Source of the DNA: a virus
Reading direction: 5' to 3' (one strand)
IMG/VR virus record: IMGVR_UViG_3300031625_000826
Length of the DNA stretch: 10,570 nucleotides
Each line of letters opens with the position of its first letter. Positions within the stretch are counted from its first letter, which is position 1. This document shows positions 1 through 5,349 of the stretch, piece by piece. A program made the translations under genes and the position numbers. The notes under the pieces were generated by a model. That model was not told where the DNA came from. It did no database searches and saw only the letters and a program-made list of their open reading frames with translations.

Positions 1-791
1 TCTTCTTTATTGTCTTCATCGGTGCGAGGAGAAATCCCCAAGTCTTCAAAAACTTCATCCATTGGGATCAATTCGACAAGCCCCAAATCAAGTTCTTCGA
101 CTTGTTCTTTGAGTTCTTCTACAAACTCGTCTCTTTGATCTGGAGGACCATGAAAGCTAATGTCAAAATAAATGGAATCAATAATATCCAACAAACTAAA
201 GTCACATTCGCTTGTTAAGAGCTTGTAGTTCTTCAGTTTAGGGTGTTTTTTAAGCCGATAAACCTCAACCTTAGCATTAAGCACCAACTTGAGATGAGCA
301 AATTGGTTAAGAGGGGAAGCAGACACAGAATATTTTTCTATGCGGCCCACAGCTTGCTCAAATCCACTTTCAGCACTAGCAGCGGCTTGATCTTCTGCTG
401 TCAACGGTAAGCTAACACCGTGAAATTCTGGTGTCATTCCAAAGTTGGTGTAATTGCTGGTTTTGAGATAGTCAACAGCCCAACAGACTTCCAAATGATC
501 CATTTTGTCGTTTTCATCAATGATAGCTGGTTTATCTAACTCATTGTGAAAATCGTCTATGTTGCTGCACCATGTGTATTGGGAAATGAGGAACGTGAGG
601 ACTTCACTTTTGCGAACAAAGTCCATGATGTGCCAGAGGGTAGTATCTGGGTCAATTTCGCAATAAGTTCGAAGGTGAGAAAGAACTGTTGGGTCAGTCG
701 CTTCCATTAGTTCTTCTTCTTGTTCTTCGGTATCCGGGTTCCACTGTGCCACCATAAGTCCATCAGGTGTTAGTGTAACTTTCTCAGCCAT
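1..791 (-). CDS. Hypothetical protein, 5' portion only; the gene continues past the left edge of the window. N-terminus MAEKVTLTPDGLMVAQWNPDTEEQEEEL..., open for 263 codons to position 1.
   Basis: The minus-strand frame is open from the ATG at 789-791 down to position 1. An AAGGAA Shine-Dalgarno-like sequence lies 8 nt upstream (TAAGGAACAAAACTG-ATG). It is absent from the ORF track only because no stop codon falls inside the window. The acidic, Glu/Asp-rich sequence matches no family I recognise. Confidence 0.65.
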   Translation of the reverse strand, partial: MAEKVTLTPDGLMVAQWNPDTEEQEEELMEATDPTVLSHLRTYCEIDPDTTLWHIMDFVRKSEVLTFLISQYTWCSNIDDFHNELDKPAIIDENDKMDHLEVCWAVDYLKTSNYTNFGMTPEFHGVSLPLTAEDQAAASAESGFEQAVGRIEKYSVSASPLNQFAHLKLVLNAKVEVYRLKKHPKLKNYKLLTSECDFSLLDIIDSIYFDISFHGPPDQRDEFVEELKEQVEELDLGLVELIPMDEVFEDLGISPRTDEDNKE

Positions 792-810
792 CAGTTTTGT
801 TCCTTAAAAG

Positions 811-1058
811 ACACCATATAACTCCCGTAAGCAAAGTTTTGTTCTATGTCTACATTTATCTCTCCACTTTGGAGGGCCGTGTATTATCACTAGCCTGCAC
901 CAACCCGACCATTATAGTGTCGCTACACACACTAAGTCTGTTTGGCTTGCACGCATCGTGGTTCAAACGAGCAATTTGCTCTCCCACAAGGAGCGAATGT
1001 GCCTTGACTTTCCTCTAACTTCAAATGAAGCCAGCGTAGACTCGGAGTTATATGGTGT
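811..1058. repeat. Perfect 15-bp inverted repeat (811-825 ACACCATATAACTCC and 1044-1058 GGAGTTATATGGTGT) enclosing a 218-bp non-coding spacer.
   Basis: The arms are exact reverse complements, read directly from the sequence. The spacer has no ORF of 60 aa or more on the coding (minus) strand. Read on the minus strand it contains a TATAAT hexamer (916-911) and a 6-1-6 palindrome GAGCAA-T-TTGCTC (969-981). Confidence 0.6.
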
Positions 1059-1331: not shown

Positions 1332-2339
1332 TCACACAAATTGTTCAACGAAACGTTCAATTAGTTCATGGAGTTCTTCTTTCTTTTGAACTCCATCGAT
1401 TAGTTCTGTCGGGAAAATACTTTTCCCATGCAAAGCCCCAATCATTGAAGCAAACATTGAACCATTTGTGTCCGTATCGCCGCCTGCGTTGACTACATTA
1501 TACAGGCCCTCGATTGTTTGATCTTTCAAAAAATGAGCATATGTGAAAGGTAGGCTGTGGTAAACATAACATCCACTTGCCGACTCAAACAGGCGATCTT
1601 TTTTATCGGATTCAAATCCGAAAAGAAGATTAAATCTCTCCCGTAGAGAATCTTCTTTTTTGGTTAATGGTGGGTCAAGCTTAGCATGTTCAACGAATCC
1701 TTCAACGTAAGCGTGGTCGACAATTTCGTCTATGAAGGCATTTTCATCAAATTCTTCTGGCTGAAAAGCCAAACAGTGTTGAATAGCTTGAGTATGAGCT
1801 ATTGCTGCGTAAGCCGACATATCTGTGTAATGACTCATCGCAGAAAATTGAACTATTTTTTTGTAAGATGGATCACTTGTATTTGGAATACCGACCATAA
1901 AGTCCCAAATCGCAATCGGAGCGATTTTCATTGGGACGCCATTTCCAGTTCCTCGATTAGGATTATCAGTAATCCCTGATTCAGACCAATGAGCACCATC
2001 TTTTAATTTGCGAATGGACTCTTGAGTAGAATAACCCCAACCTTCTACGGACTCTGCCATTGCCAGCGTGTGATACTTAGCGATGGCATCCATGTCAAAA
2101 TCATTTGCTTCAAGCAAGGCTTTAACAACAGCAAAGGAAAGATGTGTGTCATCAGTCCAAAAACCTAAAGGCTGATCGTTAAACCACTTATGCCCAAGAG
2201 GTTGTTTGTATTCGGTGACTCTGGTGTGGATGTCTGCAATCTTTTCAGCAGAGTATCCTTCGACAGGTGCCCCAAGAGCATCGCCTACCACGATTCCCCA
2301 CAAGCAGCCACGTATTTTGTCTTCAATTGGTATTTGCAT
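1332..2339 (-). CDS. ADP-ribosylglycohydrolase family protein (ARH/DraG-like), 335 aa.
   Basis: N-terminal GCLWGIVVGDALGAPVEG and C-terminal GGDTDTNGSMFASMIGALHG are the two signature metal-binding motifs of the ADP-ribosylglycohydrolase fold. The ORF ends in an ATGA-type junction region. Confidence 0.85.
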   Translation of the reverse strand: MQIPIEDKIRGCLWGIVVGDALGAPVEGYSAEKIADIHTRVTEYKQPLGHKWFNDQPLGFWTDDTHLSFAVVKALLEANDFDMDAIAKYHTLAMAESVEGWGYSTQESIRKLKDGAHWSESGITDNPNRGTGNGVPMKIAPIAIWDFMVGIPNTSDPSYKKIVQFSAMSHYTDMSAYAAIAHTQAIQHCLAFQPEEFDENAFIDEIVDHAYVEGFVEHAKLDPPLTKKEDSLRERFNLLFGFESDKKDRLFESASGCYVYHSLPFTYAHFLKDQTIEGLYNVVNAGGDTDTNGSMFASMIGALHGKSIFPTELIDGVQKKEELHELIERFVEQFV

Positions 2340-2345
2340 GCTGCT

Positions 2346-2373
2346 ATTTTACGAAAAAAAAGCTTAAAGTAAA
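2346..2373 (-). promoter_or_regulatory. Sigma70-like promoter, copy B: -35 TTTACT (2373-2368), 16-nt spacer, -10 TAAAAT (2351-2346). The predicted TSS falls at or on the ARH ATG (2339), implying a leaderless transcript.
   Basis: This is the third copy of the motif TTTAC(T/A)-N16-TA(C/A)AAT. The 3' end of its spacer is TTTTTTTTCG, against AAAATTTTCG in copies A and C. Only 6 nt (AGCAGC) separate the -10 from the ATG, and the ARH start has no SD. The -35 lies immediately after the HNH stop codon. Confidence 0.45.
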
Positions 2374-2374
2374 A

Positions 2375-2833
2375 TCACTTTTTGGATTTTACTTTCTTTT
2401 TTGCCGCCTTTATTCTCACTGGCTTCTTCTTGGCAACAACTTTTTTTGGTTTTGGTTCAAACTTGTCAATTTTCTTTTGAAGATCAAGACTCATCATGTA
2501 TGCAGTCTCTTTAGACGAACCAATTAGTCTATAGAGAGTTTCAGGTGCAAATTCGATATTAGCCGCATGAGGCACTTCCGCCTTCAAGTGGCACTCAGGA
2601 CATAACGACACACCATTGCTTTTCACGTATCCGCCAGCAGGCATTTCATCTCTTGTTGTGATGTGATGAGCATCAAGCTCGCACAATACTGCTCCAGAAG
2701 CTTCCTGTTTGGCTACTTCTTGCAGATCGTTGTGATCATATCCCTGCCGCCCACAACATCTACATTTGTGTTGATCACGGGCAAAAACTGCACCACGGAA
2801 TTCTTTTCTCATTGTCTTCTTAAAATTACTCAT
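2375..2833 (-). CDS. HNH endonuclease with a C-terminal lysine-rich (histone-H1-like) tail, 152 aa.
   Basis: A CRCCG Cys cluster is followed by the HNH core DAHHITTRDEMPAGGYVKSNGVSLCPECHLKAE (His-His...Asn...His with a CxxC zinc ligand). The C-terminus is KPKKVVAKKKPVRIKAAKKKVKSKK. Its start overlaps the OCD stop (TAATG). Confidence 0.85.
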   Translation of the reverse strand: MSNFKKTMRKEFRGAVFARDQHKCRCCGRQGYDHNDLQEVAKQEASGAVLCELDAHHITTRDEMPAGGYVKSNGVSLCPECHLKAEVPHAANIEFAPETLYRLIGSSKETAYMMSLDLQKKIDKFEPKPKKVVAKKKPVRIKAAKKKVKSKK

Positions 2834-3825
2834 TATTGCTCCTTTAACTTTTCGTAAATGTAGTTTGCTACCGCTATGTCTTGAATCGCTAAGCCTGTTG
2901 AATCAAACAAAGTGATTTGATTTTCTCTTGTTCTGCCAAGGCACTCAGCCAAGTTGCAAAAAGTTTTGCCTGACCTTTTTCCCCAAGGCATACAAGCCAT
3001 TTTTCCGCTATTGCTTGAAGGTGGGTGATAAGCGTGCTGGGTTTCTCCTGAATGAACAGCTTGTTCAAAGTCGTCAACCACCCAAATGTCAACTGCCTTA
3101 TATGTTTGAGAATCAAATTCTCTTTTGCCTTCTGCGTCTGCTCCCATTGCGTTAATGTGAACGCCTTTTTTGAGCCATTTTGCTTTCACTATTGGAGCAG
3201 TAGACGGAGTCAATGTTGTCACAATGTCTGCTCCGTCAACACATTCTTCTATGGACTTACATGCTTTTGATCCGTGCCAAAGTTCTGGCCTGTTATTTAA
3301 ATGAAACTTTCCTTCATTAGCAGAGCACATAAGATCACAAACTTCAGTATTTAGATCGAAAAAACGAACTTCAGCTATGCTGGGTCTAACGCTACAGATT
3401 GCATCTACGTGTAGTTGGGTTTGTGCTCCACAACCAATAAACGCTGCGATTTGTCCTTTACGGGGAATTCCATCGATGTTAGACAATAAATTTGTAGCAA
3501 CTCCGGCAGCCGCCGCCGTTCTTAATTTTGTGATATGAGTTGCTTCAAGGATTGCTAAAAGCTCACCCGTTGTAGCTGAATTCAAAATGATGGTGGCCAG
3601 CACAGTTGGCAAATTTTGCTGAGAATTTTCAGGAAAAACGCTGACCCATTTGACGCCAGCGACATCTCCTATGCGGACGGGCATGGCTCGGAAATCGCCA
3701 CTGGGGCAATCAATGTAAGTTTTGGAAACTGTCGAAGTATCTGTAGACTGAAATGCTTCGCCCACGATATCAATTACTTCAGACAGGTTAGTCGCCTGTT
3801 CGCATTGTAAATCTGTGATTATCAT
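2833..3825 (-). CDS. Ornithine cyclodeaminase / mu-crystallin family NAD(P)-dependent enzyme, 330 aa.
   Basis: The family hallmarks are present: LRTAAAAG, the Rossmann motif IGCGAQ, DIVTTLTPS, HINAMGADAEGKREFD, and the C-terminal ITLFDSTGLAIQDIAVANYIYEK. This is compared from memory with Pseudomonas ornithine cyclodeaminase. The ATGA overlap means the upstream gene's stop overlaps this start. Confidence 0.85.
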   Translation of the reverse strand: MIITDLQCEQATNLSEVIDIVGEAFQSTDTSTVSKTYIDCPSGDFRAMPVRIGDVAGVKWVSVFPENSQQNLPTVLATIILNSATTGELLAILEATHITKLRTAAAAGVATNLLSNIDGIPRKGQIAAFIGCGAQTQLHVDAICSVRPSIAEVRFFDLNTEVCDLMCSANEGKFHLNNRPELWHGSKACKSIEECVDGADIVTTLTPSTAPIVKAKWLKKGVHINAMGADAEGKREFDSQTYKAVDIWVVDDFEQAVHSGETQHAYHPPSSNSGKMACMPWGKRSGKTFCNLAECLGRTRENQITLFDSTGLAIQDIAVANYIYEKLKEQ

Positions 3826-4449: not shown

Positions 4450-5288
4450 GCTCCTCCCTTTTTGAAGTCGCCTTCTCCATAACCCCTAGTGAAGAAATCT
4501 CGTTCAATTGCCTTGTCCCATTCTTTCTTTTCTTTCGGATACGCAAACATATTTCCAGAAACTATGAAATTAACAACCCCTTCTTTATCCACAGTATCGA
4601 ATACATCTACATCATTACCGTAAAAATTATCTGTGTTAAACAAGGGCGGGCGATGGAAAAAGTAACTGTATTCATGCTCCTTCAAAAATTCGATAACCTT
4701 TTCTGACTCTTCCTTGCTTTCAGCCTCAACATATAAGAATGGCCTTGTTCTTTTGATTGTTTCTGCTGCTCCAGCCAAAACATCCAATTCTTCTCCTTGA
4801 ACATCAATTTTGATCAAATGAAGAGCAGATAATTCAAGGCTATCAATGGTGCATGTGGCAACTGGAATGCACAACATGTCTTTTTTAACTCGACTAGTTG
4901 AATTGTCTCCAAAGTTGCCTTCTTCCTCGTAGTTTAATACAGGAATACCACGAACTTCACCGCTAACATTGCTTGCTAATCTCTGGAATACGGCTGTGTT
5001 GGATAGGTTGTTTACTGCCACATTGCCACAGAGGATGTGGTAGATGTACTGTTGCGGCTCAAAAGCCACCACATAGCCTCCTGAGCCTATCTTTTGGGCC
5101 AATGGGATTGTGATCCCGCCTATGTTTGCCCCGCAGTCTATGAACACGTCACCGGGTTCAATGAGGTCTTTAAGGAAATTCACTTCATGATAAGAGAATT
5201 CTCCGTACAAATCAAAAGATTTGCCAATGTACTTGTCCTTGTTGGGGAAGATGATAGGCCCATATCTGCTGTCTTTAATGATGTTCAT
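4446..5288 (-). CDS. FkbM-family SAM-dependent methyltransferase, 280 aa.
   Basis: VFIDCGANIGGITIPLA is the Gly-rich SAM-binding motif. LIKIDVQGEELDVLAGA is the characteristic FkbM-domain motif. No SD is present, and the gene starts only 22 nt downstream of the strong terminator, so it is probably expressed by read-through. Confidence 0.8.
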   Translation of the reverse strand: MNIIKDSRYGPIIFPNKDKYIGKSFDLYGEFSYHEVNFLKDLIEPGDVFIDCGANIGGITIPLAQKIGSGGYVVAFEPQQYIYHILCGNVAVNNLSNTAVFQRLASNVSGEVRGIPVLNYEEEGNFGDNSTSRVKKDMLCIPVATCTIDSLELSALHLIKIDVQGEELDVLAGAAETIKRTRPFLYVEAESKEESEKVIEFLKEHEYSYFFHRPPLFNTDNFYGNDVDVFDTVDKEGVVNFIVSGNMFAYPKEKKEWDKAIERDFFTRGYGEGDFKKGGA

Positions 5289-5310
5289 GTACTAGCAGAG
5301 TATTGAGCTA

Positions 5311-5349
5311 ATAAAAAAGCCTCGCCAGTAAGAATACTGGCGAGGCTTT
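5311..5349 (-). terminator. Rho-independent terminator following the MVP homologue.
   Basis: A perfect 12-bp stem (5319-5330 paired with 5335-5346, GCCUCGCCAGUA/UACUGGCGAGGC) closes a 4-nt loop. On the minus-strand transcript it is followed by UUUUUUAU (complement of 5318-5311). It lies 26 nt after the MVP stop codon. Confidence 0.85.

Follow-up and report, generated by a model that had tools for sequence, protein, structure and literature searches.

A conserved promoter ending six nucleotides before the start codon suggests leaderless expression of an ADP-ribosylglycohydrolase gene in a probable large phage

How is a gene translated when its promoter leaves no space for a ribosome binding site? 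The question is raised by the gene for an ADP-ribosylglycohydrolase (ARH) on a 10,570-nucleotide (nt) stretch of viral DNA (IMG/VR record IMGVR_UViG_3300031625_000826), which in its full length is referred to here as the window. An earlier note on this DNA had pointed to a promoter immediately upstream of ARH and had predicted a leaderless mRNA. Our comparative analysis favors the same answer. The best reading of the locus is that the A of the ARH ATG is the first transcribed base and that the ARH mRNA is leaderless, to which we assign a probability of roughly 0.65. The 35 nt that separate ARH from the gene upstream would then most likely represent a compact cassette in which a terminator, a promoter, and a start codon are combined.

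The geometry of the cassette can be read directly from the sequence. The genes around the site are all on the minus strand: OCD, of the ornithine cyclodeaminase family (3825..2833), a gene with an HNH domain (2375..2833), and ARH itself (1332..2339). From the HNH stop codon to the ARH start codon, the minus strand reads TGA-T-TTTACT-TTAAGCTTTTTTTTCG-TAAAAT-AGCAGC-ATG. The TGA (2377..2375) is followed by a single T (2374) and then by the -35 hexamer TTTACT (2373..2368), for which the family consensus described below is TTTACA/T. The 16-nt promoter spacer TTAAGCTTTTTTTTCG (2367..2352) contains a run of eight Ts (2354-2361) that doubles as the U-tract behind a hairpin. The -10 hexamer TAAAAT (2351..2346) is separated from the ARH ATG (2339..2337) by a 6-nt discriminator without a Shine-Dalgarno (SD) sequence, AGCAGC (2345..2340), and the A at 2339 is the predicted +1. 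The HNH-ARH gap contains none of the SD cores GGAG, GAGG, and AGGA and has no space for one. On these points, that is, the 6-nt distance, the missing SD sequence, and a -35 element next to the HNH stop codon (it begins 1 nt after it), direct reading bears out the earlier note. The note is wrong in placing the promoter within the lysine-codon-rich 3' end of the HNH gene: both hexamers come after the stop codon of that gene, whose coding sequence includes no more than the 5' arm of the hairpin (2395..2385).

The argument depends on correct assignment of the start codon. The TAA of the -10 hexamer is an in-frame stop for ARH, so translation cannot begin upstream of the ATG. The next candidate start, codon 13, falls within the invariant motif DK(I/V)RGCLWG. 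For both of these reasons, the ATG at 2339 is the real start of ARH, an AUG as expected of a leaderless gene. The 335-amino-acid protein has homologs and carries an ADP-ribosylglycohydrolase domain (Pfam PF03747, 1.7e-48) that begins at residue 11, and alignment showed that its N terminus is conserved at the protein level across the clade.

Much of the evidence comes from comparison of ten lineages, including the window's own (L001, L009, L011, L012, L084, L086, L087, L089, L214, and L216), which we identified by protein search and alignment and whose ARH proteins are 66-78% identical where aligned. An identical ARH with an identical spacer was also found on eight metagenome contigs. The HNH gene lies directly upstream of ARH, with the same cassette between them, in all ten lineages, and the blocks TTTAC, TT, TTTTCGTA, AAT, and ATG are invariant, the -10 hexamer being part of the block TTTTCGTA-N-AAT. 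There is no indel from the -35 element to the ATG, and the distance from the -10 hexamer to the ATG is exactly 6 nt in 10/10 lineages. The six bases themselves are unrelated between lineages (AGCAGC, GGTCTC, AATGAC, CCCCCC, AGTAGT, AACGGT, AGAAGC, GCAAGT, GACTAA, and AAGTCT). Transcription start sites generally prefer a pyrimidine at -1 and a purine at +1, and nine of the ten lineages have a pyrimidine at -1, followed by the A of the ATG. The ARH start codon is ATG in every lineage, and the -10 hexamer supplies an in-frame TAA or TAG in all but one. As far as the sequences go, retention of this layout in ten of ten diverged lineages is far beyond chance. In lineage L089, the gene caller had made ARH 359 amino acids long (L089:2230-3309) by choosing as its start an ATG that shares bases with the HNH stop codon. 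This call reads through the promoter (MILHSSFFSYNAS-MNTLP...) and begins 13 codons too far upstream of the conserved start, the ATG 6 nt past TATAAT; it is a typical misannotation of a leaderless gene.

Is the missing SD sequence meaningful in this phage? In five loci, GGAG, GAGG, or AGGA occurs upstream of 42 of 108 gene starts, compared to 8% of background windows; the other 66 starts lack an SD core. The promoter family to which the ARH promoter belongs also precedes genes with conventional leaders. Its distance to the gene start is 49-63 nt at a gene for a major vault protein (MVP)-like protein, 43-46 nt at an open reading frame (ORF) of 125 amino acids, and 16-19 nt or about 43-47 nt at a CTP_transf_like (nucleotidyltransferase-like) gene. 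All these leaders have GGAG or AAGGAGG at SD distance, the short ones AAGGAGG. The enrichment of SD cores together with these leaders indicates that the phage and its host use SD sequences, which is why their absence at ARH carries meaning: no SD sequence stands between promoter and start in an otherwise SD-using organism. Moreover, since leader length is freely variable at the other genes, the fixed 6-nt arrangement without an SD sequence at ARH appears as a constrained feature.

The promoter itself can be recognized by its recurrence. The 28-nt family TTTAC-N11-TTTTCGTANAAT has three copies in the window, at 2373..2346, 8096..8069, and 10435..10408, compared to an expectation of 0.00 from 200 shuffles, and all three are on the coding strand upstream of genes. 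One of the sister copies on the minus strand, TTTACTTTCTCAAAAATTTTCGTACAAT (8069..8096), lies 51 nt upstream of the ATG of the MVP-like gene (8017), with GGAG in the leader. The other, TTTACATTCACCAAAATTTTCGTACAAT (10408..10435), lies 46 nt upstream of the ATG of the 125-amino-acid ORF (10361) and directly after a classical terminator (10476..10446). In related loci, 26 of 29 occurrences of the 8-mer CGTANAAT have TTTAC at a fixed offset, and every one of these 26 is on the coding strand upstream of a gene. Such recurrence exceeds chance. The copy at ARH has a hexamer pair of the sigma-70 type, resembling TTGACA/TATAAT at a spacing of 16-18 nt: TTTACT-16-TAAAAT agrees with the consensus hexamers at 9/12 positions, and the sister copies (TTTACA-16-TACAAT) agree at 10/12. 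A generic sigma-70 scan of the window returned 16 sites, which is the chance level (17.0 +/- 4.2 in shuffles), and TANAAT-N6-ATG occurs once compared to 0.43 expected, which is not significant alone. The geometry in this window alone proves little. The motif is also partly palindromic (ATTTTAC ... GTAAAAT, window 2346-2375), and the plus strand scores as well, with TTTACG-16-TAAAAT at 2348-2375 pointing antisense into the HNH gene; this match is a by-product of the partial palindromy.

Leaderless genes of bacteria are marked by TANNNT, the first T of which precedes the start codon by about 12 nt (PMC3160421), a signature that has been confirmed experimentally in Deinococcus (PMC12340547, PMC4007540). 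ARH has this signature (TAAAAT at 2351..2346, ATG at 2339), as do its counterparts in 10/10 lineages. The same geometry has arisen elsewhere in the clade. In the window's own genome (L001/L003), the family promoter is followed by GGCACC and ATG at the CTP_transf_like gene; this start (L001:9728-9764) lies about 70-80 nt beyond the window's left end. Its orthologs (L011:13226, L084:5289, L086:12381, L087:5112, and L089:5921) have gggtAAGGAGGaaaccc-ATG; in relatives, the same promoter precedes a 16-19-nt leader that contains AAGGAGG or GGAG. At a DEAD/ResIII helicase gene outside the window, a different promoter, TTGTAT-17-TACAAT, ends 6 nt before the ATG in L009 (18597), L011 (18940), L084 (~9502), and L086 (17404); L012 has 7 nt at this place, and L001 has 8 nt. 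The helicase start lies in a divergent region common to it and a UvrD-like helicase gene, and in L084 the gene caller began the DEAD/ResIII helicase gene inside the -10 element. TANAAT-N6-ATG occurs 12 times in five loci; nine of these matches mark the start of real genes of at least 205 amino acids, and the histogram of distances from TANAAT to gene starts has a sharp peak at 6.

Overlapping the promoter is an element, absent from the earlier note, that resembles a terminator. A perfect 11-bp hairpin, AAAGTAAAATC / loop CAAAAAGT / GATTTTACTTT (2366..2395, minus strand), spans the end of the HNH gene, its stop codon, and the -35 hexamer. It is followed by AAGC and the T8 run, and an A-tract flanks it upstream. 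Its predicted RNA fold has -18 kcal/mol and a z score of -3.4, with 2 G-C pairs among the 11 bp. In most of the other lineages, hairpins found with RNAfold or by eye end 0-4 nt before the T-run, with different stems in the same place. Stems recognized by eye are GCCCAA/TTGGGC, AGCAAA/TTTGCT, AGGGA/TCCCT, ATGAAGAAT/ATTCCTCAT, and AATTGA/TCAATT; these stand in different registers and allow no column-wise count of covariation. The -35 element lies in the loop or the 3' arm of these hairpins, and the T-run forms the promoter spacer. Across all lineages, a run of four to eight Ts follows 0-4 nt after the stem. An intrinsic terminator that overlaps the promoter appears to be the most economical reading of the hairpin and T-run.

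Taken together, these results suggest how ARH may be expressed. The promoter that would drive ARH from within the 35-nt HNH-ARH spacer is of the phage's own sigma-70-like family. The -10 hexamer usually occupies -12 to -7; since it ends here 6 nt upstream of the ATG, the A of that codon would be the first base transcribed by RNA polymerase. The ARH mRNA would begin with 5'-pppAUG, without a leader or an SD sequence, and 70S ribosomes would bind the 5'-terminal AUG directly, as with lambda cI (mechanism reviewed in PMC9031893). Meanwhile, the hairpin and T-run would stop the OCD-HNH transcript, at least in part, and ARH would depend mainly on its own promoter. Most likely, then, ARH is expressed apart from the neighboring OCD and HNH genes. 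Relative to the earlier note, the leaderless mRNA has gained strong comparative support from the fixed 6 nt of free sequence, the constant ATG, the pyrimidine at -1, and the SD leaders elsewhere. At the level of sequence, ARH has every feature expected of a leaderless gene; the start site itself stays a prediction.

Several observations weigh against this interpretation. The lineages share ancestry, so that 10/10 does not amount to ten independent trials. We infer the start site from sigma-70 geometry alone, and the promoter match of the single copy at ARH is modest (9/12), with generic scans at chance. Furthermore, the motif lacks TGn, is partly palindromic, and has conserved positions outside the hexamers (TTTTCG). 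It is conceivable, albeit at low odds, that a factor specific to the phage reads it and starts elsewhere. The hairpin stems are short or AT rich; in the other lineages, the minimum free energy of a 61-nt segment ranges from -5.6 to -14.3 kcal/mol, and some z scores reach only -0.7 to -2. For L009, L214, and L216, RNAfold preferred another fold, and we recognized the proposed hairpin by eye. At the ARH site, the hairpin was not called by the terminator scan, which needs at least three G-C pairs. Finally, leaderless translation is inefficient in Escherichia coli-like hosts (PMC9031893).

Alternatively, ARH could be made mainly from read-through RNA that carries OCD, HNH, and ARH, in a manner independent of SD sequences, with the promoter-like motif contributing little. 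Ribosomes would reach ARH via the U-rich/AU-rich tract, acting as a bS1-type enhancer, or by 70S scanning and reinitiation after the HNH stop codon 35 nt upstream. Given the short or AT-rich stems, the weak z scores, and the lack of a call by the terminator scan, it is plausible that some transcripts read through into ARH and are polycistronic. The spacer is U rich and unstructured, the 66 genes without an SD core are evidently translated within operons, and 70S scanning is a described mechanism (PMC9031893). Yet polycistronic expression leaves unexplained the invariant 6 nt, the conserved TTTAC, the maintenance of a hairpin and T-run with different stems, and the presence of the same 28-nt motif 16-63 nt upstream of SD-bearing starts. 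AU-rich enhancers, for their part, have no strict spacing requirement, which also counts against it. The earlier note had named exclusive expression from an OCD-HNH-ARH message as the outcome that would overturn its prediction. This is less likely given the hairpin and T-run, because transcription of OCD-HNH would stop at the terminator-like element, about 15 nt short of the ARH ATG. We therefore consider mainly polycistronic expression unlikely.

Two other explanations concern the motif itself. It may be read by a polymerase or sigma factor specified by the phage, with a start other than 7 nt after TAAAAT, which would result in a very short leader or another mode of initiation. Conservation of positions outside the hexamers (TTTTCG and the TT after TTTAC) beyond what sigma-70 contacts need would fit such a factor, as would the huge genomes (462-735 kb) of the nearest relatives among database phages. 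However, the -35 and -10 hexamers with their 16-nt spacing fit sigma-70, T4 early promoters likewise have a consensus beyond the sigma-70 elements (PMC2988021), and a pyrimidine at -1 with A at +1 fits a start on the ATG. In addition, a second promoter type with another upstream half, TTGTAT-17-TACAAT, also stands 6 nt from the helicase ATG, which suggests that the -10 element sets the distance. We give a phage-specified factor a rather small chance. Smaller still, in our estimate, is the chance that the element is no promoter but serves solely in termination or, as a quasi-palindrome (ATTTTAC-N16-GTAAAAT), binds a dimeric regulator. The two hexamers are indeed reverse complements, the opposite strand also scores in the promoter scan, and the hairpin and T-run overlap the site. 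Still, the symmetry is broken by TACAAT in the majority of family members, and the two flanks differ as well (WTT versus GAAAA). All copies are oriented with the downstream gene, and the copy after the terminator at 10476..10446 follows that separate, classical element and contains none of its own. A distance of 23 bp from center to center would be unusual for a dimer site, and a pure terminator needs no fixed spacing to an ATG. Transcription from a sigma-70-like promoter with a start on the ARH ATG thus remains the best account.

Where did the promoter come from? The earlier note had suggested that insertion of the HNH gene delivered it, and an HNH homing endonuclease that was mobile and inserted itself between OCD and ARH could have done so. 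The cassette is always directly 3' of the HNH gene, and the distant ARH loci that lack HNH (L090, L091, and L092) also lack the promoter, ARH being coupled there to the upstream gene. Our results offer no support for this origin. The HNH gene encodes a 152-amino-acid protein with a lysine-rich C-terminal tail (Pfam HNH, 5.3e-05; PHROG HNH families), and over the first 119 residues, the nine other lineages share 71-87% identity with the window's copy. The gene is at least as conserved as ARH and occurs in 10/10 lineages, without the sporadic presence and absence among close relatives that a mobile gene would show. The lysine tail is absent in L009, L089, L214, and L216, where the cassette is kept, and L089 retains HNH-ARH without OCD. 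Nor is the promoter specific to the HNH flank: the 28-nt family is the general type of this phage and precedes the MVP-like, nucleotidyltransferase-like, and 125-amino-acid genes with no HNH gene beside them. The earlier note had proposed comparison with loci lacking HNH. Our data contain no close relative without HNH; ARH loci without it were found only at 37-46% identity (L090-L092), where ARH overlaps or abuts the upstream gene, and because these are not syntenic, they are not informative as empty sites. We set aside L091 and L092 as comparisons for this reason, and huge phage LR756511 as too distant, its ARH being 37% identical, without the promoter family, and overlapping the upstream gene (ATGA). 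A recent HNH insertion that carried the promoter in is disfavored by these sequences, and we regard it as highly improbable. Elements that look genuinely mobile were seen elsewhere in the clade: an extra HNH-like ORF (CxxC...C..H) at L087:3403-3963, where relatives have the RNase P-like RNA described below; a faint LAGLIDADG match in an 825-amino-acid helicase (L001:14878-17355) that has 478 amino acids in relatives; and a faint intein match in an enlarged UvrD-like gene (L012:15255-18656).

What kind of genome carries the cassette? Megablast of the whole window against phage records gave no match, searches with the single ARH protein or the ARH alignment revealed no relatives in IMG/VR, and a scan of GTDB genomes with the ARH alignment returned nothing, neither a prophage nor a clue to the host. 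Scanning IMG/VR for the promoter pattern yielded 69 singleton matches that we judged to be chance. The corresponding metagenome scan gave mostly chance matches as well, although L138, L165, L185, and perhaps L148 look like members among the matches listed. Protein similarity was more informative. The helicase is 49% and ARH 37% identical to proteins of LR756511, a 595-kb huge phage, and the MVP-like protein is 39-41% identical to proteins of LR756500, LR756501, and LR756503 (462-735 kb). One relative lies on a 170-kb contig, and one homolog also comes from a Tara dataset. The dense, overlapping genes on the same strand, the helicases with inteins, and the genes of nucleotide metabolism are in keeping with a large phage; no structural genes were seen in the loci. 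The genome is thus probably that of a large phage from an uncultured marine clade. We considered a eukaryotic virus on account of the major-vault-protein domains and the AT-rich hairpin, a possibility that we rejected in view of the overlapping genes, the AAGGAGG leaders, and the huge-phage homologs.

Other features of the window deserve mention. The MVP-like protein of 881 amino acids (5372-8017, minus strand) contains major-vault-protein shoulder and repeat domains (Pfam PF11978, 5.4e-24; PF17795, 6.8e-10), and among phage records, its homologs occur only in huge phages of 462-735 kb. A gene for an FkbM-type methyltransferase (ATG at 5288, minus strand; upstream region at window 5289-5349) starts 27 nt after a strong classical terminator (5349..5316), and the sequence between the two, TTTTTTATTAGC..TTACTCTGCTAGGGT, is conserved in six lineages and has no SD sequence. 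Scans of the window for tRNAs and for Rfam families at gathering thresholds found nothing. Two relatives have tRNA genes (RF00005) about 10 kb upstream of ARH, at L012:72-153 and L086:239-320, with 45.7 and 55.8 bits.

The noncoding stretch of ~260 nt upstream of a 276-amino-acid gene is a conserved structured RNA (window ~785-1040, minus strand, corresponding to L001:8640-8895; also L009:11842-12113, L012:11849-12109, and L086:10952-11205). Of the 58 pairs in its consensus fold, 21 show compensatory double changes. The relatives' copies match the full length of the model for bacterial RNase P class A (RF00010), with E values of 1.7e-12, 3.6e-11, and 1.7e-07; the scores of 35-46 bits are far below the 100-bit gathering score. 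The window's own copy has no Rfam match even at an E value of up to 10, though it aligns with those of the relatives. Judged by fold and model matches, the element may be a reduced RNase P RNA encoded by the phage, and no report connecting phages with RNase P RNA came up in a limited literature search. The RNase P-like region is bracketed by a perfect 15-nt inverted repeat, ACACCATATAACTCC / GGAGTTATATGGTGT (811-825 and 1044-1058), which is confined to the lineage of the window. A plus-strand ORF of 90 amino acids (1052-1324) adjoins the repeat and is absent from relatives.

The ARH cassette has implications beyond a single gene. Gene callers that rely on SD sequences place the starts of such genes wrongly, as happened with ARH in L089 and the helicase in L084. 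For an uncultured phage clade, the cassette defines a promoter family and the boundaries of transcription units, and it hints at a host that is competent in translating leaderless mRNA. With terminator, promoter, and start codon within 35 nt, it would be about the most compact insulating expression cassette possible. More tentatively, the clade may use leaderless mRNAs as a deliberate class of expression, comprising ARH, the DEAD/ResIII helicase, and, in the window's genome, the nucleotidyltransferase, with promoters fused to start codons and insulated by terminators. We think this is doubtful on present evidence. If true, members of the class could still be made when SD-dependent initiation is compromised by host defense, phage-induced shutoff, or SD-cleaving nucleases, and the class would point to a host that translates leaderless mRNAs well.

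How does the arrangement compare with known systems? The closest parallel is lambda cI transcribed from PRM, a phage gene with a sigma-70-type promoter, a start on the A of AUG, no SD sequence, and initiation by 70S ribosomes, as cited in PMC3160421 and PMC9031893; the same layout is predicted for ARH. The biological settings differ. The cI gene encodes a repressor of lysogeny and has a tightly regulated, activator-dependent promoter, whereas ARH encodes an ADP-ribosylglycohydrolase in a large, apparently lytic-type phage, its promoter belongs to a multicopy family and overlaps a terminator-like hairpin, and the case is known from sequence alone. Early promoters of T4 carry a GTTTAC-like -35 element, which would match the TTTAC of the family described here. 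They also form a strong, phage-borne, sigma-70-like family with a consensus beyond the hexamers and many genomic copies (PMC2988021). Unlike the family here, which has CG at -14/-13 and a T-run, they have SD leaders, TGn, and UP elements, and no relationship between the phages is implied. In phiKZ, likewise a large phage, a conserved, AT-rich motif for the phage's own early promoters has been mapped upstream of genes. However, differential RNA sequencing of phiKZ revealed no leaderless transcript, most of its 5' untranslated regions being 31-40 nt (PMC8244752), to which the arrangement at ARH would stand in contrast.

Among bacteria, leaderless genes of Deinococcus-Thermus and Actinobacteria have an identical geometry without an SD sequence, and their recognition from sequence is accepted practice (PMC3160421, PMC12340547, PMC4007540, PMC3898074). 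There, 20-60% of genes are leaderless, whereas here they would be a minority of two to three per 20 kb in a phage that otherwise uses GGAG or AAGGAGG, and the promoter has a full -35 element and a 28-nt consensus, unlike in those bacteria. Terminators and promoters placed back to back, with a stem-loop and T-run at the end of one unit before the promoter of the next, are familiar too, and the window holds an example at 10476..10446, followed by the promoter at 10435. The ARH site differs from this type in that the elements overlap, with the -35 hexamer in the loop or 3' arm, the U-tract serving as the promoter spacer, and stems so short or AT rich that the efficiency of termination is doubtful. 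Leaderless initiation and its sequence signature are well known, and no paradigm is changed by our findings. Rather, the ARH cassette would be a strongly conserved and very compact case of an arrangement that, in principle, is unsurprising.

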